A DNA stretch of 48,821 nucleotides, taken from contig JACDHV010000002.1 in NCBI GenBank assembly GCA_013820855.1, positions 1 to 48,821 of the forward strand, read 5' to 3'. Of the stretch, positions 267 to 12,954 are shown piece after piece. Made by a program: the position numbers and the translations under genes. The DNA is from Gemmatimonadales bacterium (lineage in GTDB: Bacteria > Gemmatimonadota > Gemmatimonadetes > Gemmatimonadales > GWC2-71-9). Position 1 is the first letter of the stretch; each line of letters starts with the position of its first letter. Under the pieces are notes generated by a model, which saw only the letters and a list, made by a program, of their open reading frames with translations, searched no databases and had not been told where the DNA came from.

Positions 267-2477
267 TCAGACCGCGAATGCCGCAAGCGCCACCTGGCCC
301 AGCGCGATGCCGCCGTCGTTCGGCGGCACGGCCCGGTTCGACCAGATACGGAGTCCGGCCGGGGCGAGGCGGGTGCGCAGCTCGCGGCTCAGCAACTCGT
401 TCTGAAATACGCCGCCCGAGAGCACGACGGTGGCGATGCCGGTGCCGTGGTGGAGCGCGAGCACCGCCGCGGCGAGACCGGCCGCGAGCCCGCCGTGAAA
501 GGCGCGGGCGACCGTGCCGCGGTCCCGGCCCGCCCGCCGGTCGGCGAGCAGGGCGGCGAGGAGCGGCCGGTAGTCCAGCACGCCGGCGGCGTAGGGCATC
601 GGGTACGGCTCGGCGGGGCCCCCGGCATGCGCGAGGTGCTCCAGCCAGACTGCCGCCTGACCTTCGTAGGTGATCTCACGCGTGAACCCGAGCAGCGCGG
701 CCGCGGTGTCGAACAGGCGCCCGGCGGAGGTCGTCGGGAAGCAGCGAACGTCCTTCGTCACCAGTTCGGCGGCACGGGCATAGCGCTCGGGCAGCTCGAA
801 CGGGGCCTCGCCGGCCGCGGGCGCCGTATCCGTCTGCGCGAGGAAGCCGGCGGCTGCCTGCACCGGCCAGCGGGCCGCGGCGTCGCCGCCGGGCAGCACC
901 GCGGGGAGGAGGTGCGCCGCCCGAACCAGCCCGCCCGCCACACTGCCGGTGAACAGCTCACAGCCCCAGATCGTCCCGTCATCGCCCCAGCCGGTGCCGT
1001 CGAGAGCGATTCCGATCACGGGCTCGTCGAGCATGCCCTGCTCGGCGAGCACGCTCGCGACGTGCGCCCGGTGGTGCTGCACCGCGTGGTGGGCCGCGGC
1101 GGGCAGGTCGAGCCCGTACGCCGACGACACGTAACCCGGGTGGGCATCATGCGCGACCATGAGCGCCGAGCGGTCCACGTCATACATCTCGAGCAGGTCG
1201 TCGATCGCGGTCGCGAAAGCTTCGCGGGCAAGCGCGTGATCGAGGTCGCCGATGTGCTGGCTCGCCACCGCTTCACCGCCGACGACCAGCACCACGGCGT
1301 TCTTCAGGTCGGCGCCGACGCCGAGCAGAGGACGCGCCGTCGGGATCCGCGCGACCACGCCGGGCGCGAGGCCGCGCGCGCGCCGCAGCACCACCGGCGG
1401 GCGCACCACCGAGTCATCCATGCGGCGGGCGATCGGCCGATCGCCTACGAGGAAGGCGTCGGCGATGCCGGTGAGACGGGCGGCGGCGTCGGAATCCTCG
1501 AATGCGATCGGCTCGCCCGACCGGTTACCACTGGTGAGTACCAGCACCGGCGGCGCGCCGGCATCGAACAGCAGGTGGTGCAGCGGGGTGGACGGGAGCA
1601 TCACGCCCAGCTCGTCGCTGTCGGGCGCCACTCCCGGCAGCTCGATGAGCGCGGGCGCGAGTACGATCGGACGGGCGACGCCGGTGAGCACCGCCTCCGC
1701 CCCGCGCTCGAGCCGCACGAGACGCTTCGCAGTGGGCAGATCGCGGGCGAGGAGCGCGAAGGGGCGCTCCTTCCGGAACTTCCGCGTCCGCAGCGCCTCG
1801 ACCGCGGCGGCGTTCGACCCATCGCAGGCGAGGTGATAGCCGCCGAGTCCCTTCACGGCGAGGATGCGGCCGCCGCGGAGCAGCGCAGCGGCGGCGGCGA
1901 CCGGATCGCCGGCATCCGATCCGGCGATCCCGCGCAGCACGTACCCCGGGCCGCAACGCGGGCACGCGACCGGCTGCGCATGGAACCGGCGGTCGGCGGG
2001 GTTGGCGTATTCGGCGGCGCACTCGGAGCACATCGGCCACTCGTGCATAGTGGTGCGCGGGCGGTCGTATGGCAGGCCGAGCATGATCGAGTACCGTGGT
2101 CCGCATTCGGTGCAGTTGATGCAGGGATAGCCGAACCGGCGGTCGGCGGGGTCGCGCAGCTCGCGCAGGCAGGCATCGCACACCGCTAGGTCGGGCGAGA
2201 TGCCGGCGGTCGGCCGTGCGGCGCCCGCGCTGTGGCGGATCTCGAACGCCGCCGGGGCGTGCGGCAGTACGGCGGAGGCATCGATCCGGTCCACCCGCGC
2301 CGCGACGGGAGCCTCGCGCTCGAGCGCCGTTGCGAAAGCGTCGAGCGTCCGCGGGTCGCCCTCCACGTGGATCTCGACGCCATCGCCGGTATTGAGCACC
2401 CAGCCGGCGATGCCATGGCTCCGGGCGAGCCGCCAGACGAACGGGCGGAACCCCACGCCCTGAACCACGCCACGCAC
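267..2477 (-). CDS. hypF: [NiFe]-hydrogenase maturation carbamoyltransferase HypF
   Basis: 736-aa ORF. It has an N-terminal acylphosphatase-like VQGVGFRP block and two Cys4 zinc-finger blocks (CDACLRE...CINCTECGPRYS and CSECAAEY...CPRCGPGY), followed by YrdC-like and Kae1-like regions. GTG start at 2477; a slightly more upstream start is possible. Confidence 0.95.
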   Translation of the reverse strand: MRGVVQGVGFRPFVWRLARSHGIAGWVLNTGDGVEIHVEGDPRTLDAFATALEREAPVAARVDRIDASAVLPHAPAAFEIRHSAGAARPTAGISPDLAVCDACLRELRDPADRRFGYPCINCTECGPRYSIMLGLPYDRPRTTMHEWPMCSECAAEYANPADRRFHAQPVACPRCGPGYVLRGIAGSDAGDPVAAAAALLRGGRILAVKGLGGYHLACDGSNAAAVEALRTRKFRKERPFALLARDLPTAKRLVRLERGAEAVLTGVARPIVLAPALIELPGVAPDSDELGVMLPSTPLHHLLFDAGAPPVLVLTSGNRSGEPIAFEDSDAAARLTGIADAFLVGDRPIARRMDDSVVRPPVVLRRARGLAPGVVARIPTARPLLGVGADLKNAVVLVVGGEAVASQHIGDLDHALAREAFATAIDDLLEMYDVDRSALMVAHDAHPGYVSSAYGLDLPAAAHHAVQHHRAHVASVLAEQGMLDEPVIGIALDGTGWGDDGTIWGCELFTGSVAGGLVRAAHLLPAVLPGGDAAARWPVQAAAGFLAQTDTAPAAGEAPFELPERYARAAELVTKDVRCFPTTSAGRLFDTAAALLGFTREITYEGQAAVWLEHLAHAGGPAEPYPMPYAAGVLDYRPLLAALLADRRAGRDRGTVARAFHGGLAAGLAAAVLALHHGTGIATVVLSGGVFQNELLSRELRTRLAPAGLRIWSNRAVPPNDGGIALGQVALAAFAV

Positions 2478-2515
2478 CCGGAGGAGCCGCGCCTCCGTCT
2501 CGACACCGCCCGGCG

Positions 2516-2803
2516 TCAGCGCTCCTCCGCGGCCGGCGGCGAAACGGTGCAGCCGCGGCCCTGCCAGCCGATGGCGACGACGCGCCCATCCTCGACCAAG
2601 ACCGGTACGGTTCGCCCGCCGCCGGTCAGCCGGTGCAGCCGCACCAGCGCCGCCGGATCGCGCTCGACGTCGTACTCCACGAACTCACGGCCCTCCCACT
2701 CGAGCCGCTCACGACACTCCGCGGTGTAGGGACAGGCCGCGCTGCCGAACAGCTCCACCCGCCGCCGTGGCTCCGGCTCGGCCGCACCGGTCCGCTCAAC
2801 CAT
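2516..2803 (-). CDS. Glutaredoxin/thioredoxin-fold small protein (monothiol CPYT motif, Cys near the C-terminus)
   Basis: Taken from the internal ATG at 2803 of ORF 2516..2953: MVERTG...VELFGSAACPYTAECRERLEWEGREFVEYDVERDPAALVRLHRLTGGGRTVPVLVEDGRVVAIGWQGRGCTV.... The ATG overlaps the upstream stop codon by 8 nt (ATGGTTGA). Confidence 0.7.
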   Translation of the reverse strand: MVERTGAAEPEPRRRVELFGSAACPYTAECRERLEWEGREFVEYDVERDPAALVRLHRLTGGGRTVPVLVEDGRVVAIGWQGRGCTVSPPAAEER

Positions 2804-3974
2804 TCGCCAGCGCCTCCAGCGCGCCCCGCAGGACATGATAGATGGACGCCTGCACCTCCTGGATCCGCGGGATGTAGTCGGACCGCACGACGAGGGCGTG
2901 ATCGGCGAGGCCGCGACGCACGATTTCGCCACCATCGTATCCGAGCAGGGCAACAGTCAGCATGCCGCGGCGCCTCGCTTCCTCGAGCGCCACGATGATG
3001 TTGGCGGAACCGCCGCTGGTGGAGATGGCGAACGCGATGTCGGCGCTGCCGCCGTGAGCGACGAGCTGGCGCAGGAAGACCAGCTCGATACCGACGTCGT
3101 TCGCGATCGCGCTCAGGCTCGCCGGCTCGAGCGACAGCGACAGCGCGGGCACCGGATGCCAGCCGGACGGCGGGGCCACGCAGTCGAGCGCGAAATCGTT
3201 CGCATCGGTGGCCGAGCCGCCGTTGCCGAAGGTGAGGACGCGGCCGCCGCGGGCCACGCGCTCGTGAATCGCCGCGGCGGCTGCCACGATCGCGCCGGCC
3301 TGCTCTGCCGCAACGGCCGCACGCAGCGCCTCATCGTCCGCCGCCTTGGCCCGGATCGAGTCGGCGACCTGCGCAGCGATCCCGCCCATCTCCTGCTTCG
3401 CCGCGCCGAGGAACGGGTAGAGAAAGCCGGCGGCGCCCACCTCATGGCCGCGCTCCCGGTGTTCGAAGAAGACGTGCACCGTCTCCCACAGGGTATGGTA
3501 GAGGATCTCGACCAGCTCCTGGTGCACGAACGGGTCGCTCGACGGTATCGGCGGAGCATAGTCACCGGCGGGGCCGCACAGCGCGAAGGTCTGTGCGCCC
3601 CGCGCGCCCGCCGCATCCAGCGCGGCATCCACCTCCGGATCGCCGGCGGGGCCGGCGAAGCCCATCACGATATCCTCGCCGGTTACCAGTGCCGGTACCC
3701 ACTCGGGAAACGCGATGGAGAGGTCGAGCGCCGGCAGCGCCCGCTTGCCGACGATCACCGGATGCACAAACTCGACGGCTACGTGCTGGGCGTCGGTGGC
3801 GCAGGCGCCGCGGCCGAACGCGAGCAACCGCCCGCCGCGCAGGAAACGCTCCGCCATTTCACGGCAGGCGGCGGCGAGCGGCTCGGCCTCGTGCGCGAAG
3901 AAGGCGGCCGACGCGGCATTGCGCGCTAGGAGCGCCTCCTCGACGATGCGCGACGGGGAGAGGAGCGACGGCAC
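2796..3974 (-). CDS. Double SIS-domain (GmhA/phosphoheptose-isomerase-like) protein of the hydrogenase cluster
   Basis: 392-aa ORF with two SIS-like halves (FGRGACATDAQHVAVEF... and FGNGGSATDANDFALD...AISTSGGSANI). GTG start 6 nt after the hypE stop. Confidence 0.8.
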   Translation of the reverse strand: MPSLLSPSRIVEEALLARNAASAAFFAHEAEPLAAACREMAERFLRGGRLLAFGRGACATDAQHVAVEFVHPVIVGKRALPALDLSIAFPEWVPALVTGEDIVMGFAGPAGDPEVDAALDAAGARGAQTFALCGPAGDYAPPIPSSDPFVHQELVEILYHTLWETVHVFFEHRERGHEVGAAGFLYPFLGAAKQEMGGIAAQVADSIRAKAADDEALRAAVAAEQAGAIVAAAAAIHERVARGGRVLTFGNGGSATDANDFALDCVAPPSGWHPVPALSLSLEPASLSAIANDVGIELVFLRQLVAHGGSADIAFAISTSGGSANIIVALEEARRRGMLTVALLGYDGGEIVRRGLADHALVVRSDYIPRIQEVQASIYHVLRGALEALANG

Positions 3975-3980
3975 GGCGGT

Positions 3981-5018
3981 TCAACAGATCCTGGGGAGGG
4001 GATCGCCGACGAGCATGTCGACGATACGGGCGCCGCCGTACGGCGCCGTCGAGAGCACCGCGCCGGCGGGCTCGGTGCGGATCTCGCCGATCAGCGCGGC
4101 CGCCTCGCCGCCGGGGGTCGCTCGCACAGCGGCCAGCGCGGCGTCGGCGACCTCCGGAGCGAGCACTGCGAGGAACTGCCCCTCGTTGGCGATGTGCAGC
4201 GGATCGAGCCCGAGCAGCTCACACGCGCCGCGGACCTGGTCGCGCAGCGGGATCATCTCCTCCAGTAGCCCCACACCGAGCCGGGTGTCGACGGCCAGCT
4301 CATTCAGTGCGCTCGCCACGCCGCCGCGGGTCGGGTCGCGCATCCAGCGGAGCCCGTCGGCTGCGACGTCGAGCAACCGCTCCACGAACGGCAGCACCGG
4401 ACGCGTGTCGGAGCAGAGGCTCGCCTCGAAGTCGAGCTCGCCGCGGGCGAGCAGGATGGTGATGCCGTGGTCGCCGATCGGCCCGGAGAGGAGCACCCGA
4501 TCGCCCGGCCGGACCGCCGCGGGCGAGAGCCGGGCCCGCGGGTCGACGATGCCGAGACCGGTCGTGGTGATGTACATCCCGTCGGCCTTGCCGTGCTCCA
4601 CCACCTTCGTGTCGCCGCCGACGACGCCGACGCCCGCCCGCTCGGCGGCCGCAGCGATCGCCCGCACCTCGGCTTCGAGCACCGACGCCGCGAGCCCCGC
4701 CTCGAGCACGAGCGTGACCACGAGCGCGGCCGGACGGGCAGCCGCCATGGCGAGATCGTTCAGGGTTCCGTTCACCGCCAGTTCGCCGATCGACCCGCCG
4801 GGAAAGCGAAGCGGCCGCACCACGAAGGCGTCGGCCGTGAGCGCGACCCGTTCGGCGCCGAGCTCGAGCACGGCGGCGTCCATCAGGGGACCGAGGAGCG
4901 GTCCTCCGAGCAGCGGCGCGATGAGCCCCTCGACGAGCCGGCGGCTCGCCTTGCCGCCCGCCCCATGCGCCATTTCGATCTGCGGGTCACGGAAGCGGAC
5001 CGCGCCGGCGCTTCTCAT
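3981..5018 (-). CDS. hypE: Hydrogenase maturation protein HypE
   Basis: Internal ATG at codon 45 of ORF 3981..5150. The N-terminus is MRSAGAVRFRDPQIEMAHGAGGKASRRL and the C-terminus is the diagnostic ...DPLPRIC. ATGA overlap with the hypD stop. Confidence 0.95.
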   Translation of the reverse strand: MRSAGAVRFRDPQIEMAHGAGGKASRRLVEGLIAPLLGGPLLGPLMDAAVLELGAERVALTADAFVVRPLRFPGGSIGELAVNGTLNDLAMAAARPAALVVTLVLEAGLAASVLEAEVRAIAAAAERAGVGVVGGDTKVVEHGKADGMYITTTGLGIVDPRARLSPAAVRPGDRVLLSGPIGDHGITILLARGELDFEASLCSDTRPVLPFVERLLDVAADGLRWMRDPTRGGVASALNELAVDTRLGVGLLEEMIPLRDQVRGACELLGLDPLHIANEGQFLAVLAPEVADAALAAVRATPGGEAAALIGEIRTEPAGAVLSTAPYGGARIVDMLVGDPLPRIC

Positions 5019-6160
5019 CCGGCCGCGGCGGCCGGCGCGGGAGCCGCGTCTTCCTCCAACCGGGCGCGCCGGTGCGCGAAGTTGTAGTAGGCGGCGCACG
5101 CGCCCTCGGAGGACACCATCAGGGCGCCGACCGGATGCTCCGGCGTGCACTCGCGTCCGAACAGCTTGCAGCGGTGCGGCTTGAGCACGCCCTTCAGCAC
5201 CTCACCGCACTGCGCCGCCTTCGGATCGGTTACCCGGACACCGGGCAGCTCGAACCGGCGCTCGGCGTCGAAGTCGGCGTAGGCCGCTGAGACACCGAGC
5301 GCCGACTGGGAGATGAAGCCGAGTCCCCGCCACTCGAAATACGGCCGCAGTTCGAATGTCTCAGCCATTGCCTGGAGCGCGGGGAGGTTTCCCTCCCACG
5401 GCACCACCCGAGCGTACTGGTTTTCCACCTCCGCCCGGCCCTCCCGGAGCTGGCGCAGGATCATGACGATTCCCTGCAGGACGTCGAGTGGCTCGAAGCC
5501 GGACACGACGATCGGCCGGCCGTAATCGCGGGCCACGAATTCGTACGGACGGCAGCCGATGACGGTCGAAACGTGCCCGGGGCCGATGAATCCGTCGATG
5601 CGCATGTCGGGCGAATCGAGGATGGCGCGGATGGCGGGAATGATCGTGACGTGGTTGCTGAAGACGGTCAGGTTCGGCACGCCGAGGCTGCGGGCGCGCC
5701 GCAGCGTCAGCGCAGTGGACGGCGCCGTGGTTTCGAAGCCGATCGCGAAGAAGACGACCTGCCGATCAGGGTTGTCGCAGGCAAGCTTGAGCGCGTCGAG
5801 CGGCGAGTAGACCATCCGGATGTCGGCGCCGCGCGCGATGTGCTCAAGCGGACTGCCGCGGCGCCCCGGCACCCGCATCATGTCGCCGAACGCGGTGACG
5901 ATCGCGCCGTGCTCGACCGCCAGGGCGAGCCCGTCGTCCACGCGGCCCATCGGCAGCACGCACACCGGGCAGCCGGGGCCGTGCACCAGCTCGATGCTGT
6001 CCGGCAGGAGATCCTCGAGCCCGAAGCGATAGATCGCATGCGTGTGGCCGCCGCACACCTCCATGAACCGATAGTGGCGGCCGGGCTCCATGAGCCGGCG
6101 GATCTCGTCGGCGGTCCGGCGGATGAGCTGCGGGTCGCGGAACTCGTCCACGTACTTCAT
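5015..6160 (-). CDS. hypD: Hydrogenase maturation protein HypD
   Basis: Internal ATG at codon 115 of ORF 5015..6502: MKYVDEFRDPQL...EVCGGHTH...GPGCPVCV...FETTAP...GPGHVS. The upstream 114 codons are Arg/Gly-rich junk. ATGA overlap with the preceding gene. Confidence 0.95.
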   Translation of the reverse strand: MKYVDEFRDPQLIRRTADEIRRLMEPGRHYRFMEVCGGHTHAIYRFGLEDLLPDSIELVHGPGCPVCVLPMGRVDDGLALAVEHGAIVTAFGDMMRVPGRRGSPLEHIARGADIRMVYSPLDALKLACDNPDRQVVFFAIGFETTAPSTALTLRRARSLGVPNLTVFSNHVTIIPAIRAILDSPDMRIDGFIGPGHVSTVIGCRPYEFVARDYGRPIVVSGFEPLDVLQGIVMILRQLREGRAEVENQYARVVPWEGNLPALQAMAETFELRPYFEWRGLGFISQSALGVSAAYADFDAERRFELPGVRVTDPKAAQCGEVLKGVLKPHRCKLFGRECTPEHPVGALMVSSEGACAAYYNFAHRRARLEEDAAPAPAAAAG

Positions 6161-6411
6161 GGGACCGCCTCCCCCGCCGCGACCAGGCCGATGGCGACAC
6201 CCATGTGCACCAGCACGACGTCGCCCGGGCGCGCGTCCGGCACGAAATCGAGCGCCACCCCGGCGCGCGCACCGGTGCGGTCCTCGACCGTGGCGATGCC
6301 GGCCGGGGCGTCCAGCGCAATCACCCGGGCGGGGACCGCGACATCGCCGCAGGTGGTGCAGCCGTCCTGTTCCAGCGTACAGGTGCCGAAGCGGGTCAGG
6401 TCGTCGGTCAT
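6157..6411 (-). CDS. HypC/HupF-family chaperone, variant copy without the N-terminal MC motif
   Basis: Internal ATG at codon 135 of ORF 6157..6813: MTDDLTRFGTCTLEQDGCTTCGDVAVPARVIAL...GDVVLVHMGVAIGLV. The C-x-T-C-G-D block and the C-terminal VLVH.G.A block resemble HupF/HypC-like proteins. ATGA overlaps at both ends. Confidence 0.7.
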   Translation of the reverse strand: MTDDLTRFGTCTLEQDGCTTCGDVAVPARVIALDAPAGIATVEDRTGARAGVALDFVPDARPGDVVLVHMGVAIGLVAAGEAVP

Positions 6412-6674
6412 TCGAATTGGTATCCCTCGACTTCCTCGGCCGCCAGCGTCGCCTCGCCGAGCATGGTGAGCAGACGGAGCTGTTCCTCGGCCTGCTCGGC
6501 ACTGATGCGGCTCATGGCGAAGCCGACGTGAATCAGCACCCAGTCGTCCACCGCCAGGCCGTCGGGACGCAGCAGATCGACGTTCACCTTGCGGCGAACG
6601 CCGGTGACGTCGACGACGGCAAAACTCGGCTCGGCCGCGAACTCGACGATGCGGCCCGGGATGGCGAGACACAC
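6408..6674 (-). CDS. hypC: Hydrogenase maturation chaperone HypC
   Basis: 88 aa beginning MCLAIPGRIVEF, the canonical HypC N-terminus, followed by ...DDWVLIHVGFAM. GTG start. Confidence 0.9.
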   Translation of the reverse strand: MCLAIPGRIVEFAAEPSFAVVDVTGVRRKVNVDLLRPDGLAVDDWVLIHVGFAMSRISAEQAEEQLRLLTMLGEATLAAEEVEGYQFE

Positions 6675-6686
6675 GGGCGCGGCCGC

Positions 6687-6788
6687 CTACATGTCCCGCA
6701 TCTTGAGGTAGCGCCGTATTTCGGGATACTGGTGCACCAGCAGCATCCCCACCCCCGCCGCCACCGCGAGCAGCACGATCCGGCCCAT
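6687..6788 (-). CDS. 33-aa single-pass membrane micro-protein, absent from the ORF track
   Basis: Read by hand: ATG at 6788, TAG at 6689-6687. It encodes MGRIVLLAVAAGVGMLLVHQYPEIRRYLKMRDM. A purine-rich GAGAGGCGGTGG sequence lies upstream. It fills the only sizeable gap between the protease gene and hypC, with a hydrophobic helix followed by a basic tail. Confidence 0.45.
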   Translation of the reverse strand: MGRIVLLAVAAGVGMLLVHQYPEIRRYLKMRDM

Positions 6789-6802
6789 GACACCACCGCC
6801 TC

Positions 6803-7645
6803 TCATCTGGCACTCTCGTTTGAGGGTGACGCCGGCCACTCGCCGGCCGTCAGGTCCTGCACCAGCTTCTCGACCAGCCGCACCGCGCCGGCGACCGCGG
6901 TCTGCACCGGCGCGCTCAGCCGAGTGATGATTGCGGTCGGGTCGTGGTCTTCCGGAAACTGCTCCGGCTCGCAGCCGACCACCAGGGTTCGGGGTGGCTC
7001 CCCGCCGAGCCCGCGCACCAGGTGCAGGACGCGCACGGGGTCCATGCCGTGCGTCTCGACCGTTGGCGGCGCCGCATCGTCGAGCTCCGGCTCGAGCACG
7101 AACAGCGTGCCGGGTGCCTCGCCGCGCGGCATGGCATCGATCAGGATTGCGGCGTCGTAACCGTTCTGGAGCGCGTAGGCGAGATCGATGCCACGGATGC
7201 CGAACTCCCGGACCGTTACCCCCGGAGGCCAGCGCCGTTCCACGAGCGCCTGCGCAACCACCACACCGAATCCGTCGTCGCCCAGGAAGACGTTGCCGAT
7301 ACCGGCGACCAGGATCCGCGGCGCGCCGCGGGCCATGTCGTCATCGAGCGGCAGCGGCTCGACCTCGTCGGGCGCGAAGAAGAAGCGATGCGCCGGGAAC
7401 CGGCCTTCGCCGAGATCGCGACCCGGATCGTCGTTCACGGTGACGGCGAGCATCAGCTCGCCGCCGATGTCCTGTTCGATCGTCTCCACACGGGCGGTGC
7501 GGCCGGCGAGCACCATGTCGAAGGCGTCGCGGCCGGACCGCGGCCGGAGCCTCACCATGCTGCCGGTTCGCAGCTCGACACCGGCCACCTCGATGTTGGT
7601 GGGGGCGGGCCGGGCCGCGTCGCTCCAGAAATCCGCGCCGCTCAT
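6803..7645 (-). CDS. Hydrogenase maturation endopeptidase (HyaD/HupD family) with an in-frame ~103-aa N-terminal domain of unknown function
   Basis: The ATG at 7645 overlaps the upstream stop (ATGA). Residues 104-280 carry RILVAGIGNVFLGDDGFG...ILIDA...VETHGMDP, typical of the protease. Residues 1-103 (MSGADFWSDAARPAPTNIEVAGVELRTGSMVRLRPRSG...FFFAPDEVEPLP) have no recognised family. No stop codon separates the two parts, and there is no SD before the internal ATG at 7336. Confidence 0.85.
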   Translation of the reverse strand: MSGADFWSDAARPAPTNIEVAGVELRTGSMVRLRPRSGRDAFDMVLAGRTARVETIEQDIGGELMLAVTVNDDPGRDLGEGRFPAHRFFFAPDEVEPLPLDDDMARGAPRILVAGIGNVFLGDDGFGVVVAQALVERRWPPGVTVREFGIRGIDLAYALQNGYDAAILIDAMPRGEAPGTLFVLEPELDDAAPPTVETHGMDPVRVLHLVRGLGGEPPRTLVVGCEPEQFPEDHDPTAIITRLSAPVQTAVAGAVRLVEKLVQDLTAGEWPASPSNESAR

Positions 7646-8667
7646 TCGGCGCCGACGACGCGCAGCTCGCGCACCGCTCCGTGCAGGCGGGACAGCTCCT
7701 CCGGACCGAGCGCCATGCAGCGGTCGAGGATCTCGCGCGCCCGGGGATCTGAGTCGCGCATCTCGGCGCGCTCCTCGTCGGTGAGCGCGAGGATGTTCAG
7801 GATGAGGAGCTGATCGATCTCGCCGCCGTCGAAGAGGTCGCCGGGGCTCTCGGGGGCGATCCGGGGATAATCTCCGAGAATGATCGGGGCGGACAGCAGC
7901 GTGTGGCGCTCGCCAAGCTCGCCCACGAGCACGGGCCAGGCGCCGATGTTGCGGCACGCGGCGGCGGCGGCGGCGAGCTCCGCGGGCGGGTCGGTGAGCG
8001 ATACGAAGGCGCCGCCATTCGCCTGGACGGTGGCATGAGTCGAGATGAGCGCCCTCCGCTGCGCCGCCTCGCGACTGCCGCCGCTCCACGGCGTCGTGTT
8101 GGCGATTTCGATTCGGAGCCGCCAGAGCCCCGGCTGCACCGCCACCGCGCGGAGCGTGACGGCGCCCTGGATCCCGTCCCACGACCGCACCACGGCGCCG
8201 ACCGGCCGCCCCTCCTCGAGGACCGGCTCCTCGGCGGTCCCGGCGGCGATGTCGAGCGGCACCAGCCGCGGCGTTTCGAGTGCCGCCGGCGCCAGATCGT
8301 CCAGGATGACCTGGCGCTCGACCGCCTCCTCCCAGGCGAGGTGGCGGCGTCCGCCGGCGACCAGCTCGTCCACGTACCGTCGATTTCCATCCGCATCGCA
8401 CGCAACCCGTCGGTCGACGACCTGAAGGAACCGCACCCGGACCCGCAGCCGTGCCGCAGCCGGGTCGGCAGCCTCGAGGAGGCACTCGGTGACGATCCGC
8501 CAGGCGTCATCACCGCCGCGGGCGTCGCTCCACGCCTGCGGGTACACGCCACCGAAGGTCCAGCGCTGGCGGTTCTTCAGCGCGGAACGGCGGTACGGCC
8601 AGAGCAGGTAGCCCTCGTAGAGCACCGCCTGCGCGATGCGCTCGAGCGCGGCATCGGAGCCGCTCAT
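7642..8667 (-). CDS. 341-aa conserved-looking protein of unknown function in the hydrogenase operon
   Basis: ATG-initiated ORF that starts 1 nt after the preceding stop, and its own stop overlaps the next start (ATGA). Globular composition; no motif recognised. Confidence 0.8.
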   Translation of the reverse strand: MSGSDAALERIAQAVLYEGYLLWPYRRSALKNRQRWTFGGVYPQAWSDARGGDDAWRIVTECLLEAADPAAARLRVRVRFLQVVDRRVACDADGNRRYVDELVAGGRRHLAWEEAVERQVILDDLAPAALETPRLVPLDIAAGTAEEPVLEEGRPVGAVVRSWDGIQGAVTLRAVAVQPGLWRLRIEIANTTPWSGGSREAAQRRALISTHATVQANGGAFVSLTDPPAELAAAAAACRNIGAWPVLVGELGERHTLLSAPIILGDYPRIAPESPGDLFDGGEIDQLLILNILALTDEERAEMRDSDPRAREILDRCMALGPEELSRLHGAVRELRVVGAE

Positions 8668-8668
8668 G

Positions 8669-8893
8669 TCAGGGGGGGGAGAGGTTGGGCATGCGTGGGT
8701 CGATCGGGTTCCGGTTCTTGGCGTTGATTCCGGTGGACCGGGCGGCGGTGGAGGTGCCGTCGGGCAGATGCCCGTCCTGGGCCTCGTAGTTGCCGGGCGA
8801 GTTGCCCTGCTTGACGCCCTTGACGTGCGTGGGCGCGCCCGGCGAGGTCTGTGGCTTGCCGACGGTCAGGTTGTTCGACTGTTTCGACTTCAT
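8669..8893 (-). CDS. 74-aa hydrophilic, low-complexity (N/Q/K/G/P/S/T-rich) protein
   Basis: Internal ATG at codon 38 of ORF 8669..9004, preceded by a strong SD (GGGGGAGGTGGCACGATG): MKSKQSNNLTVGKPQTSPGAPTHVKGVKQGNSPGNYEAQDGHLPDGTSTAARSTGINAKNRNPIDPRMPNLSPP. ATGA overlap with the upstream gene. Confidence 0.6.
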   Translation of the reverse strand: MKSKQSNNLTVGKPQTSPGAPTHVKGVKQGNSPGNYEAQDGHLPDGTSTAARSTGINAKNRNPIDPRMPNLSPP

Positions 8894-9552
8894 CGTGCCA
8901 CCTCCCCCGGTTCGGACGACGCCGGCGCCGCGCGGCGCCGCAGATCGTCGAAGAACAGATCCAGTTTCTCCCATACGGTATCGCCGCCGCTGAGACCCTT
9001 CCACTCGCCGCGCAGCAGGGCGACGAGGCGATAGCAGACATCGATCGGGACGAGCCAGCAGTCGCGCGCCCCCCGCGCCCGGTTGACGAGCACCGCCTCG
9101 ACGTCGCTCTGCAGCTCACGGATTACCGGGTGCGCGGCTTCGAGCGCGGACCACTCCGGTGGGTCGATGGTCGCGTCCGTCGGGCCCAGCGCGCCCGGGA
9201 ACACCGCCACCGGCCCGCTCTCGGAATGCCGGACGAGGAATGCGAGCGCGACCGGAATCCGGAGCGTCTCCCAGACAGCGTCGTCGTGTGCCAGCTCCGG
9301 GAGCGCCTGAAGGCGCTCGGGAACCAGCCGGTAGCGTCCGCCATGCGTCGCCGAGAGGTCGAGCACCATGGCGCAGGGCCGGCAGGCGCAGCGCAGCAGG
9401 CCGGCCGACAGTTCCACCAGATGCTGATGCTCGGGCGGAATCGGTGTGGCGCAGAGATCGCAGCGTTCGGGCGCCCCCGGATCATCCGCGGAGCGCGGCG
9501 GTGCCGCGGCAGTGGCACCGCGCCGGATCAGACCGCGCAACCGGCCGGTCAT
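8890..9552 (-). CDS. 220-aa Cys-rich protein (recalled to resemble DUF5947-type proteins of group 1h clusters)
   Basis: Internal ATG at 9552 with an ATGA overlap to the NifU-like gene. The N-terminal region carries CDLCATPIPPEHQHLVELSAGLLRCACRPC, five Cys arranged like a metal site. Confidence 0.75.
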   Translation of the reverse strand: MTGRLRGLIRRGATAAAPPRSADDPGAPERCDLCATPIPPEHQHLVELSAGLLRCACRPCAMVLDLSATHGGRYRLVPERLQALPELAHDDAVWETLRIPVALAFLVRHSESGPVAVFPGALGPTDATIDPPEWSALEAAHPVIRELQSDVEAVLVNRARGARDCWLVPIDVCYRLVALLRGEWKGLSGGDTVWEKLDLFFDDLRRRAAPASSEPGEVAR

Positions 9553-10085
9553 CGCCCGTTGCCGAGCTGCACCAGCATCGGGGCGGCGGGCGGCGCGGGT
9601 GCGGAAGCGCCGTTCTCCGCCTCGATGCCCGTGAGCTCCGGCGCGGCCCGGAGCACCGCCTCCTCGACCGAGCTGTGCAGCGTAACGGCCGACGACGGGC
9701 ACCCCTTGCAGCTGCCGGTGAGCCGCACGCGCGCGATGCCGCCGTCTACGGCGAGCAGCTCGACATCGCCGCCGTGCGAGCGGATGTAGGGCCGCACCTC
9801 GTCGAGCGCCGCCCCGACCCGCGCCTCCACCGCATCGGGATGCAGCTCGTGCAGCATCAGCAGATGACCCACGAGCGGATCGGCGGTGAAGCGGTCCAGC
9901 AGGCCGGGGCCGCCGACATCCGAGGCGGCAGCCACGATGCGGGCGAGCGCCGCGCCGTAGAGCTCGACGATTCCCTGCACCGCCGCGAGCGCGGCGTCGC
10001 GGGCGGCGGGATCCTCGATCAGTTCGACCTGCGCGAGCAGCGCCTCGACCTCGGCGGCCCGCGCATCGAGCGACGGGTCGCTCAC
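9549..10085 (-). CDS. NifU C-terminal-domain (Nfu-like) Fe-S scaffold-type protein
   Basis: GTG at 10085 overlaps the hhyL stop (GTGA). The sequence is MSDPSLDARAAEVEALL... and the C-terminal half carries LDEVRPYIRSHGGDVELLAVDGGIARVRLTGSCKGCPSSAVTL, the NifU/Nfu signature with CxxC. Confidence 0.85.
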   Translation of the reverse strand: MSDPSLDARAAEVEALLAQVELIEDPAARDAALAAVQGIVELYGAALARIVAAASDVGGPGLLDRFTADPLVGHLLMLHELHPDAVEARVGAALDEVRPYIRSHGGDVELLAVDGGIARVRLTGSCKGCPSSAVTLHSSVEEAVLRAAPELTGIEAENGASAPAPPAAPMLVQLGNGR

Positions 10086-11881
10086 CCGCCCAGCCCGTAC
10101 TGTGACGAATGCACCTGCTCGAGCACCTTGCCGTTGCCGAGATACATGTGCACGCCGCACGGGAGGCAGGGATCGAAGCTGCGCACGGCGCGCATGATGT
10201 CGATGCCCTTGAAGTCGTCGGGGCCGTTCTCCTCGAAGATCGGCATGCCCTGCACCGCATCCTCGTACGGCCCGGGAGTCCCGAGACTGTCGCGGGGGCT
10301 GCCGTTCCAGGGAGTCGGCGGGTAGGGGTGATAGTTGGCGATCTTGCCGTCGCGGATCACCATGTGATGCGAGAGCACCCCCCGCACCGCCTCGTGGAAG
10401 CCGCAGCCGATGGCGTTCTCCGGCACCTTGAAATCGGTGAACGTCTTGGTCCTTCCGGCCCGCACCTCGTCCATGGCCTTCTCGAGGAAGAAGATGGCCT
10501 GCGCGGCGGCGTACGCGATGAAGTACGCGCGCGCCCGGTCCCGCTCGATGGTGTTGGACCACTGCGGGATCTTCCACTCGAGCGTGGCCGCGGGATGCTT
10601 GAGGCTCTTCGGCAGATTGATCTGCACGCTGTGCCCGGTGGCCTTCACGTAGCCGGTGTCGACGGTCCCGGCGAGCGCGGTGGCCCAGAAGCGCGCGAGC
10701 GGACCGCCGCCGGTGTCAAGCGCGAGGTGATCACCGCTCTGGGGATGGAACCAGCGCGGGCTCATGACCCAACTGTACTTGTCGTCGAAGTTCCGCTTCT
10801 GGGGGCGCGGAATCGTCGTCTGGTTCCACGGATGCCGCCGGTCCACCGGGTTCCCGAGCGGATCGGTGGACACGAACATCTCATCGTTCTCCCAGTCGTC
10901 GTAGAACGAGCTGCCGAGCAGGATGCGGATGCCGAGATTTATGTCCACCAGATCGGTGGTGATGAGCTTGCCGTCCACGACGATGCCCGGGGTGACGTAC
11001 ATCGCGTTGCCCCACTCGTTCATCGTGCGGTACTGGTAATCGCAGACGTCCGGGTTCTGGAACGCGCCCCAGCACCCGAGCAGGATGCGCCGCTGCCCCA
11101 CCCGCTCATATCCCGGCAACGCCTCGTACCAGAAATCGAAGATGTCGTCGTTCATCGCGACCGCTTCCTTGACGAAGTCGAGGATGGAGACGAGGCGCGA
11201 CAGGTAGTCGGTGAAGACCTGGGTGGTGGCGATGGTGCCGACGCCGCCGGGATAGACGGTGGACGGATGGACGTGGCGCCCTTCCATGAGGCAGAACATT
11301 TCGCGGGTGACGCGGCTGACCCTCAGCGCCTCCCGGTACACCGCCCCGGTGAAGGGGTTGAAGGCCCGCATGATGTCGCCGATGGTGCGGTATCCGTGGA
11401 TTTCGGAGTGCGGCGCGGGGGTGCGGTTCGCCTTGTCGAGGACGCCCGGATTGGTCTGCTTGACCATCTCCTCGCACCAGTCCACGAAGACCAGGTTGTC
11501 CTGGAAGATGGTGTGGTCGAACATGTACTCGGCGGCCTCGCCGAGGTTCACGATCCACTCCGCCAGGTTGGGCGGCTGGATGCCGTACGCCATCTGCTGG
11601 GCGTAGGTGGAGCAGACGGTGTGGTTATCGCCGCAGATGCCGCAGATCCGGCTGGTGATGAAGCCGGCGTCGCGGGGGTCCTTCCCCTTCATGAAGACGC
11701 TGTAGCCGCGGAAGATGGAGGAAGTGCTGTGGCACTCCGCGACCTCCCGGTTCTCAAAATCGATCTTGGTGTAGATGCCGAGATTCCCGACGATCCGGGT
11801 GATCGGATCCCAGTGCATCTCGACCAGCTTGCCGCGCCCCGCCGTGGAGGGGGCACCGGCGGCTACGTCTCGGGTGGCCAT
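10082..11881 (-). CDS. hhyL: [NiFe]-hydrogenase large subunit, group 1h (formerly group 5) type
   Basis: Internal ATG at 11881, preceded by a GAGGAG SD. The L1 motif is TSRICGICGDNH and the L2 motif is SFDPCLPCGVH, followed by a 21-aa C-terminal extension (MYLGNGKVLEQVHSSQYGLGG) of the kind removed by the maturation protease. 599 aa. Confidence 0.95.
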   Translation of the reverse strand: MATRDVAAGAPSTAGRGKLVEMHWDPITRIVGNLGIYTKIDFENREVAECHSTSSIFRGYSVFMKGKDPRDAGFITSRICGICGDNHTVCSTYAQQMAYGIQPPNLAEWIVNLGEAAEYMFDHTIFQDNLVFVDWCEEMVKQTNPGVLDKANRTPAPHSEIHGYRTIGDIMRAFNPFTGAVYREALRVSRVTREMFCLMEGRHVHPSTVYPGGVGTIATTQVFTDYLSRLVSILDFVKEAVAMNDDIFDFWYEALPGYERVGQRRILLGCWGAFQNPDVCDYQYRTMNEWGNAMYVTPGIVVDGKLITTDLVDINLGIRILLGSSFYDDWENDEMFVSTDPLGNPVDRRHPWNQTTIPRPQKRNFDDKYSWVMSPRWFHPQSGDHLALDTGGGPLARFWATALAGTVDTGYVKATGHSVQINLPKSLKHPAATLEWKIPQWSNTIERDRARAYFIAYAAAQAIFFLEKAMDEVRAGRTKTFTDFKVPENAIGCGFHEAVRGVLSHHMVIRDGKIANYHPYPPTPWNGSPRDSLGTPGPYEDAVQGMPIFEENGPDDFKGIDIMRAVRSFDPCLPCGVHMYLGNGKVLEQVHSSQYGLGG

Positions 11882-11895
11882 GGCGGGTCTCCTCG

Positions 11896-12954
11896 TCAGC
11901 GATTCAGGTGGCGCGGCGCGTAGCCGGTCGTGAGCGCCGGGCGGTTGTGGCGCCACTTCGGCTCCTTGTTCACCGTGTCGTTGGTGATGGCGCGGAGCCG
12001 GCGGAAGAGCTTGCCGTACGCGCCGATCATCGTGGAGGACACGGTGCCGCCGGGCGGCTGGTCCATGAACGGCATGAACTTGTCGGGGAAGCCGGGCATG
12101 GTGCAGCCGATGCAGATGCCGCCGACGTTGGGGCAGCCCCCGATTCCGTTCATCCATCCGCGCTTCGGCACGTTGCAGTTAACGACCGGACCCCAGCAGC
12201 CGATCTTCACCTGGCACTTGGGGCTGTTGTAGTCGTGCGCGAAATCGCCCTGCTCGTAGTAACCCGCGCGGTCGCAGCCTTCGTGCACCGTCTTGCCGAA
12301 GAGCCAGGTGGGACGGAGCTGGTCGTCGAGCGGAATGACCGGCGCCTTGCCCGCCGCCTGGAAGAGCAGCCAGGTGAGGGTCTCCATGAAGTTGTCGGGC
12401 TGGACCGGGCAGCCGGGGACGTTCACGATGGGGAGGCCGCCGGCGGAGCGGAAATCCCAGCCGAGGTAGTCGGCGAGACCCATGCAGCCGGTGGGATTGC
12501 CGGCCATGGCGTGAATCCCGCCGTAGGTGGCACAGGTGCCGGCGGCGACGACGCCCCAGGCGCCGGGCGCCAGCCGGTCGATCCACTCGTTGACCGTGAT
12601 CGGCTCGCCGGTGGCGGGGTCGTTCCCCATCGAGGTCCAGTAGCCCTCGCCGTTGATCTGCTCGTTGGGAATGGAGCCCTCGATGACGAGCACATACGCC
12701 GCACCGAGCTCGCCGCGCGCCGCCTTGAAGAACGGCTCGAGGAAGTCGCCCTGCCCTCCGCCCATACTCGGCGAGAGCACCTTGTTGTGCAGGTGCACCT
12801 TCGGGAGCCCGGGGATCAGGCCGAGTACCACGTCCTCTATGCTCGGCTGGGTGGCCGCCGTGATGGAAATGGTGTCGCCGTCACAGCTTAGCCCTTCCGA
12901 AATCCACAGGACGTGGACCTCGTCCACCCCGCCGCCGCTGGTCGTCTCATCCAT
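11896..12954 (-). CDS. hhyS: [NiFe]-hydrogenase small subunit, group 1h type, without a Tat signal
   Basis: 352 aa: MDETTSGGGVDEVHVLWISEGLSCDGDT...GTCATYGG...PGCPVQPDN...CWGPVVNCNVPKRGW...CPNVGGICIGC. There is no RRxFxK twin-arginine leader. A strong GAGGAGGA SD precedes the ATG. Confidence 0.95.
   Translation of the reverse strand: MDETTSGGGVDEVHVLWISEGLSCDGDTISITAATQPSIEDVVLGLIPGLPKVHLHNKVLSPSMGGGQGDFLEPFFKAARGELGAAYVLVIEGSIPNEQINGEGYWTSMGNDPATGEPITVNEWIDRLAPGAWGVVAAGTCATYGGIHAMAGNPTGCMGLADYLGWDFRSAGGLPIVNVPGCPVQPDNFMETLTWLLFQAAGKAPVIPLDDQLRPTWLFGKTVHEGCDRAGYYEQGDFAHDYNSPKCQVKIGCWGPVVNCNVPKRGWMNGIGGCPNVGGICIGCTMPGFPDKFMPFMDQPPGGTVSSTMIGAYGKLFRRLRAITNDTVNKEPKWRHNRPALTTGYAPRHLNR

Follow-up and report, generated by a model that had tools for sequence, protein, structure and literature searches.

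The window, by which we mean the entire 48,821-nucleotide stretch of the Gemmatimonadales contig analysed here, carries on its minus strand a 15-gene group 1h [NiFe]-hydrogenase island (267..12954, assigned from Pfam matches), in which the genes follow one another in the order hhyS, hhyL, hhyE, DUF5947, a gene for a 74-aa protein, x7642, protease, DUF6893, hypC, hypC2, hypD, hypE, SIS, grx-like and hypF. The large subunit HhyL is 74% identical to the HofG large subunit of C. necator pHG1 and about 75% identical to a copy on a mycobacterial plasmid, and its sole relative in the PDB is 5AA5. Downstream of hhyE, the gene for the DUF5947 protein (8893-9552, minus strand; Pfam, 212 bits) is followed by that for the 74-aa protein (8672-8893, minus strand), which has no Pfam match and a homologue of which lies directly upstream of the micro-gene described below in Micromonospora-type and Streptomycetaceae clusters. 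Two mechanically called open reading frames in this interval, 8664..9119 and 9123..9518 (window 8664-9518, minus strand), were judged to be wrong frames because their GC content by codon position is atypical. Closer to the feature under study, a [NiFe]-hydrogenase maturation endopeptidase of the HycI/HupD family with a fused N-terminal domain of about 103 aa is encoded at 6803..7645 (minus strand), the Pfam HycI model (PF01750) covering residues 410-539 of the long protease frame, and hypC (HupF/HypC family; PF01455, 86.5 bits) is found at 6408..6674 on the same strand.

Between these two genes lies a micro-ORF at 6687..6788 on the minus strand, which opens with an ATG at 6788, runs through 33 sense codons to 6690 and closes with a TAG at 6689-6687. 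This is exactly the 33-codon ATG-to-TAG frame given in a preliminary description of this DNA, its strand being the minus one, and its translation reads MGRIVLLAVAAGVGMLLVHQYPEIRRYLKMRDM without any mismatch. The protease frame ends with a TGA at 6805-6803 and hypC begins with a GTG at 6674 (MCLAIPG...), which leaves a spacer of 128 nt (6675-6802); the micro-ORF occupies 102 of these, with 14 nt left before it and 12 nt between its stop and hypC, so that the spacer is almost exactly filled, as had been remarked, and is also, as remarked, the largest gap in the operon, all other mapped junctions being 4-nt overlaps or gaps of at most 38 nt. The purine-rich sequence noticed upstream comprises the Shine-Dalgarno-like elements GAGG (6802-6799) and GGTGG (6797-6793) ahead of the ATG (6793..6802, minus strand, read from the sequence). 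We place the start at 6788 rather than at the upstream GTG at 6839 because the open frame of a same-genus relative (L004/L058) opens only one codon upstream of the corresponding MGR; near-identical copies are present in same-genus relatives (e.g. MGRLFRFALVIGAGVLLVHQYPEIRRYLKMSRM), and the 50-aa GTG-extended frame, used as a query, retrieved only the window's own protein. Searches of 6300-7200 for Rfam families, promoters and terminators gave no match, and the gene is predicted to be transcribed within the operon, between the genes for the maturation endopeptidase and HypC. The micro-ORF and hypC share a reading frame, with the TAG and four codons between them (window 6674-6788, minus strand). 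Read-through of the stop codon from the peptide into HypC was considered and rejected, as spacing and frame vary in Micromonospora (3, 21 or 22 nt), and this lack of conservation makes read-through unlikely to matter.

The peptide matches the Pfam family DUF6893 (PF21833) with 40.8 bits against a cut-off of 24.6 (E=2.2e-10), its residues 3-33 aligning with positions 2-32 of the 32-position profile, and a six-frame genome search scores it at 38.7 bits as the sole above-cut-off DUF6893 copy in the 3.49-Mb, 363-contig assembly. DUF3918, DLW-39 and MmpB, for which weak matches fell below the respective cut-offs, were discarded. In size and architecture the product is typical of the family, being a stand-alone protein of 33 aa with a short N-terminus and one hydrophobic helix: a profile search of 1.84 billion representative proteins returned 1,533 clusters (50% identity) at E<=1e-3, almost all of them 28-45 aa long with the match reaching the last residue, and a degenerate DNA pattern composed of the tail and the stop codon identified at least 119 loci in species-representative genomes. 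Group 1h clusters with DUF6893 occur in Actinomycetota, Acidobacteriota, Gemmatimonadota, Chloroflexota, Planctomycetota, Verrucomicrobiota and Pseudomonadota, and a conserved frame at the equivalent position, which the preliminary description had proposed to look for in other phyla, was found in several of them. The P-[DE]-I-[RK]-RYL-[KR] proteins that it tentatively placed beside actinobacterial hydrogenase genes do exist, as DUF6893, and are not limited to actinobacteria. Apparent natural fusions that would have named a partner (P0084, P0143, P0078 and P0070) were rejected as frame-shifted or chimeric gene calls; in P0084, P0143 and P0078 the micro-protein is joined artefactually to out-of-frame stretches of x7642-type genes or to a HypA fragment.

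The notion that the gene is unannotated and would be missed by most gene callers does not survive comparison with public data. The exact 33-aa protein is present in the NCBI and Logan protein sets with a precomputed PF21833 match, the label 'DUF6893 family small protein' is applied by NCBI to relatives from Nocardia, Mycobacterium, Micromonospora and Cupriavidus, and the C. necator copy is PHG071. The gene tables of PLSDB omit the micro-gene both on pHG1 (L130 14699-14800) and on a Mycobacterium intracellulare plasmid (L131 14274-14393), and accessions exist for both (WP_011153993.1 and WP_418303059.1, respectively), so the lack of a listed gene in PLSDB is no proof that a gene is unannotated. 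A tblastn search of plasmids with the peptide, a short query of low complexity, gave no match, and pHG1 was reached through HhyL instead. No mention of DUF6893 or PHG071 was found in the literature searched, and no PDB chain resembles the family. As DUF6893 is a family without assigned function, membership in it says nothing about mechanism; the window's gene is an ordinary member of a catalogued family.

It is conceivable that the frame does not encode a functional protein at all and is either a chance product of a GC-rich spacer or part of a spacer whose retention serves translational coupling or RNA structure alone. At 70% GC few stop codons are expected, and 1.5% of 20,000 shuffles of the spacer yield, on this strand, an ATG-initiated ORF of 33 codons or more that is closed by a stop, or 6.5% when ATG, GTG and TTG starts are all admitted; ORF length by itself is only mildly unusual. 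Nevertheless, such an origin is countered by the significance of the Pfam match, by amino acids that are conserved across phyla despite synonymous change, by a hydrophobic stretch that precedes the motif in 119 of 119 pattern matches, by conserved Shine-Dalgarno sites and starts, and by the retention of the gene sequence while its neighbours change, and the RNA variant further by the lack of an RNA family match. The GC content of the micro-ORF at codon positions 1, 2 and 3 (0.71/0.32/0.91) resembles that of the flanking genes, and a Shine-Dalgarno sequence (GGAGG, AAGGA or GAGG) lies 5-12 nt before the ATG in nearly all of 101 distinct ATG-start homologues. Among 11 Micromonospora loci, a test set retrieved through HhyL rather than through the peptide, the Shine-Dalgarno sequence and the stop are kept, the start swaps between ATG and GTG at the same position, and variable sites are distributed 10/7/18 over codon positions 1/2/3. 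Together with median pairwise dN/dS values of about 0.35-0.5 in several length classes, this distribution bears out the frame in the comparison of synonymous and nonsynonymous change that had been suggested earlier. The pN/pS ratio is 0.21 for the last 12 codons and 0.66 for the first 27, a contrast biased by sample choice, as the very low tail value is partly built in by a search pattern that selected on the tail. We therefore regard a non-functional or purely RNA-level origin as exceedingly improbable, and on comparative grounds the frame is a genuine, conserved and translated-looking gene of the DUF6893 family.

The occurrence of the peptide was compared with that of the hydrogenase in several samples. 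Hydrogenase or hyp genes lie within 8 kb in 111 of the 119 motif-selected loci. When 80 loci were seeded with a mycobacterial HhyL, the peptide was found in 78, the remaining two contigs ending before the protease region (78/78 Mycobacteriales loci where this region is covered), and when 80 loci were seeded with the window's HhyL, a canonical copy was found in 46, counting the weak syntenic one in L197; copies of all types, including the intermediate one in L167, are present in about 68 of these 80; of the 12 others, 8 lie on truncated contigs. At the level of whole genomes, six of the seven members of the window's genus and order that encode an HhyL of at least 65% identity carry the peptide (41 genomes examined), compared with none of the 34 others; across 201 Gemmatimonadota genomes the corresponding numbers are seven of eight with an HhyL of at least 73% identity and none of the remaining 193, which include three with a large subunit only about 42% identical to that of the window. 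On the HhyL tree the canonical form is scattered over both main branches. The presence of the peptide tracks the group 1h hydrogenase, though not universally, and we are nearly certain that DUF6893 is a real gene functionally tied to this enzyme.

The exceptions run in both directions. No copy was found in the full-length 1h loci L143, L168, L190, L191 and G004, nor in G184, a genome of the same phylum whose HhyL is 77% identical to that of the window and which has no DUF6893 match. The G004 locus (L132; G004:C1:2048000-2066000) belongs to the window's genus and encodes an HhyL of 65% identity; its hypA begins 32 nt after the protease gene (~9905-9938), and neither profile finds a micro-ORF anywhere in it. 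Conversely, about 7% of the family lies outside hydrogenase clusters. Such orphan copies occur in uncultured Actinomycetes (L087:4996-5112 and L020:5915-6031, also L080 and L096), and those of the L087/L020 type sit in a stress-signalling neighbourhood, among genes for a TetR regulator, CsbD-like and STAS-domain proteins and an anti-sigma-type HATPase_c_2 kinase. A different situation is seen in L124 (oriented, 2604-4300), from a genome of 56% GC, where an intact DUF6893 gene persists in a decayed hydrogenase cluster, with a truncated small-subunit fragment, a C-terminal HypF fragment, hypA and a frame-shifted hypB downstream and a HoxN/NiCoT-like ORF upstream on the opposite strand.

The Pfam model returns nothing above its cut-off in 22 of 23 Streptomycetaceae genomes, and with this family scored as lacking the peptide three changes suffice on the HhyL tree, one of which is the whole Streptomycetaceae clade. 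We considered that the Streptomycetaceae 1h clusters are peptide-free and rejected this, since a divergent homologue is seen at the syntenic spot; the weak PF21833 matches of about 20 bits in these genomes are noise. This form has about 50 residues, a transmembrane helix, the motif P-G-[LI]-V-R-E-[VI]-R-I-W-R-M and an extension of about 11 residues (for example ...ALALLIMEIPGIVREIRILRM-VGFPSGSRRPR), and is encoded after hhyE, the DUF5947 gene and the 74-aa gene and before hypA. It is present in 21 loci, namely L136 (13142-13336, plus strand) and L137, L138, L145, L146, L149-L151, L155-L158, L160, L164, L166, L176, L177, L198, L199, L203 and L204. A profile built from it cross-matches canonical members with E values of 1e-4 to 2e-6, its hhalign comparison with the family alignment yields 78% probability (E=1.8e-5), and forms intermediate between the canonical and Streptomycetaceae types occur (e.g. 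...YPAIRREIRIWRM-stop); together, these relationships support homology of the Streptomycetaceae micro-protein to DUF6893. As the divergent form falls below the PF21833 cut-off, the Pfam model under-counts the family, and as the RRY and the terminal Met are replaced in it, neither is universal.

A transmembrane helix is predicted for residues 4-21 (IVLLAVAAGVGMLLVHQY; 6726..6779, minus strand) by Kyte-Doolittle analysis, with a 19-residue maximum of 1.94, and by AlphaFold2, which returns one helix over residues 2-32 with a mean pLDDT of 92, in agreement with the single hydrophobic helix proposed before. The uncharged run of the window's copy extends from I4 to Y21, about 18 residues, where the family median is 21. 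Residues 22-33 (PEIRRYLKMRDM-COOH; 6690..6725, minus strand) form a basic C-terminal tail, delimited by conservation across the family, in which P22-E-I-R-R-Y-L-K-M-R-D-M33-stop conforms to the family motif P-[DEA]-x-R-R-Y-[LIM]-[KR]-[ILM]-x-x-M plus stop. Across 120 distinct HhyL-seeded peptides the tail reads P(98%)-[D/A/E]-x-R(88%)-R(99%)-Y(98%)-[L/I/M]-[K/R](96%)-[I/L/M]-[R/E]-x-M(99%)-stop. Of the two words earlier applied to this tail, basic is apt but amphipathic is not, its helical hydrophobic moment being 0.28 as compared with 0.38 +/- 0.18 for shuffles. The mean net charge of the C-terminal flank is +3.1 versus +0.8 for the N-terminal one, with the C-terminal value larger in 83 of 103 members, and by the positive-inside rule this asymmetry suggests that the conserved tail faces the cytoplasm and the N-terminus the outside. 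The DUF6893 peptide is the only product of the 15-gene island with a transmembrane-like segment, the others being within the norm for soluble folds.

The protease core gene directly adjoins the micro-gene in 92/119, 27/42 and 77/77 loci of three samples (about 82% overall), while the order of the surrounding genes differs between lineages. Mycobacteriales have the N-domain gene, then the peptide, then the protease; Micromonospora has the 74-aa gene, the peptide and hypC, sharing the micro-ORF-to-hypC order with the window; and outside these two groups the protease is followed by the peptide and then by hypA, hypB, hypC, hypF, SIS or hhyS. All 77 of the 77 scored Mycobacteriales loci (L215-L294) place the micro-gene between a separate N-domain gene of about 100 aa and the protease core gene; the window encodes N-domain and protease core as one continuous ORF (6803-7645), and there the micro-gene comes after both. 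On pHG1, PHG071 sits in the 'actinobacterial-type' hydrogenase cluster, between hypF and the protease gene, which we take to be PHG070.

We tentatively propose, at somewhat less than an even chance, that the peptide tethers the Hhy system to the membrane or serves it as an adaptor there, with the tail docking one of the soluble proteins of that system. The helix would span the cytoplasmic membrane with its N-terminus outside and its C-terminus inside, as expected from the positive-inside rule, the invariant tail would then be displayed at the inner membrane face, and there it would dock a soluble component, either mature HhySL(E) or the endopeptidase or last maturation intermediate. In this way the peptide would serve in trans, as tether or adaptor, an enzyme that lacks a Tat signal, carries no transmembrane tail on the small subunit and has no cytochrome b partner. 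The proposal draws on the status of the peptide as the sole transmembrane-like product of the island, on its charge bias and on the published membrane association of Hhy: the M. smegmatis enzyme is found only in the membrane fraction, from which 5% cholate does not release it, and neither a transmembrane region nor a signal peptide nor a cytochrome b partner is predicted for it (bioRxiv 10.1101/769216; PMC6883350). Several findings speak against a tether. The commonest neighbour of the micro-gene is the maturation protease and not hhyS, hhyL or hhyE, so that a role in maturation fits at least as well; a few full-length 1h loci have no copy, and the orphan members lie outside hydrogenase clusters; the Streptomycetaceae form has other residues in place of the 'invariant' RRY and the terminal Met; and the hydrophobic stretch of the window's copy is short.

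The main rival to the tether is a maturation-stage factor that would work with the endopeptidase and/or HypC during assembly only and have no place in the working enzyme. It might, for instance, bring the final maturation step to the membrane, or gate or recruit the protease. The appeal of such a factor lies in the adjacency to the protease core gene in all three samples, in the Mycobacteriales arrangement where the micro-gene separates two protease parts that are fused in the window, and in the hypA, hypB, hypC or hypF gene that otherwise usually follows. The C. necator enzyme was reportedly purified in active form from a soluble extract, which, if so, indicates that the peptide is neither needed for in vitro catalysis nor a tightly bound subunit of that preparation, and the purified and crystallised enzyme (5AA5) is without it. 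Gene order is fluid in these operons, however, which makes adjacency weak evidence, and several kb separate the micro-gene from the protease gene in Micromonospora-type and Streptomycetaceae clusters, where it comes after the hhyE-DUF5947-74-aa block. Moreover, we know of no [NiFe] maturation step that needs a membrane component. We accordingly consider a factor confined to maturation unlikely, at perhaps one chance in a handful or slightly better. Most characterised bacterial single-helix micro-proteins bind and tune a membrane protein, and the peptide could by analogy be a small regulatory subunit, like CydX, KdpF, AcrZ or MgtS, of another membrane complex that serves the hydrogenase (for instance a terminal oxidase, a quinone site or a HoxN/NiCoT-type Ni transporter) without binding the hydrogenase itself. 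A HoxN/NixA-family transporter gene does stand beside the C. necator pHG1 cluster, as does the NiCoT-like ORF beside the relic cluster of L124, and the orphan copies outside hydrogenase clusters are in line with a partner of this kind. Most peptide-bearing clusters, however, have no membrane-protein gene nearby, presence at the genome level follows HhyL and not a ubiquitous respiratory complex, and conservation is concentrated in the tail and not in the helix, as judged from the sample-biased pN/pS values given above, all of which leaves service to another complex improbable.

The closest known counterpart is PHG071 of C. necator H16 pHG1 (AAP85824.1, WP_011153993.1; MKGFLKYLVLPALVVALLANIKDIRRYIRIRSM), a DUF6893 member annotated as a hypothetical protein that shares with the window's peptide its size of 33 aa, its architecture and its place in a group 1h cluster; it differs in having a Lys where the window has the motif Pro, and in the window the order is protease, DUF6893, hypC. 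Bacterial single-helix micro-protein subunits such as CydX, KdpF and AcrZ, and Prli42, a membrane tether of a soluble complex, resemble DUF6893 in their length of about 30-50 aa, their single helix, their encoding in the operon of the complex served and in having been long overlooked, whereas they have no sequence relationship to it and their partners are known; the arrangement of Prli42, with a soluble N-terminus and a C-terminal helix, is the opposite one. The group 1d hydrogenases, in which a single helix together with a cytochrome b (HyaA/HyaC, HoxK/HoxZ) holds the enzyme at the membrane, may work alike. There, by contrast, the helix forms the C-terminal transmembrane part of the small subunit itself and contacts the haem b subunit in an enzyme that is exported by Tat to face the periplasm, and no sequence relationship exists, while the DUF6893 helix would act in trans on the cytoplasmic side with no cytochrome encoded. 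Anchors of the group 1d type are absent from the Hhy operon (PMC6883350). HucM, from the group 2a hydrogenase Huc of M. smegmatis, offers a precedent for a small non-catalytic protein that is encoded with a high-affinity hydrogenase and links it to the membrane (PMC10017518). It is a peripheral, tetrameric scaffold of 188-189 aa that forms an amphipathic coiled-coil tube and conducts menaquinone, as opposed to the one hydrophobic helix and 28-45 aa of DUF6893, and no similarity between the two was detected.

The family is already catalogued and does not represent a new kind of element, and the gain lies in a better-focused lead and fuller data on distribution, with genome-level counts of co-occurrence in Gemmatimonadota, statistics on neighbouring genes, the Streptomycetaceae variant and the exceptions to universality. 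Much of the atmospheric H2 taken up by soils is attributed to group 1h hydrogenases. Published work presents the membrane binding of the enzyme and its electron transfer to menaquinone as an unsolved problem (10.1101/769216; PMC6883350), and a conserved single-helix peptide that is essentially confined to the occurrence of this enzyme provides a concrete lead on the membrane attachment of Hhy. Going beyond a tether or adaptor, a bolder and more doubtful possibility, which we rate below that proposal, is that DUF6893 and its Streptomycetaceae form are the missing membrane subunit of group 1h hydrogenases, an in-trans helix whose conserved cytoplasmic tail would clamp the HhyS/HhyL/HhyE complex to the inner membrane face beside the quinone pool. 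If true, this would account for the resistance of membrane-bound Hhy to detergent and close the route by which electrons from atmospheric H2 reach the respiratory chain.
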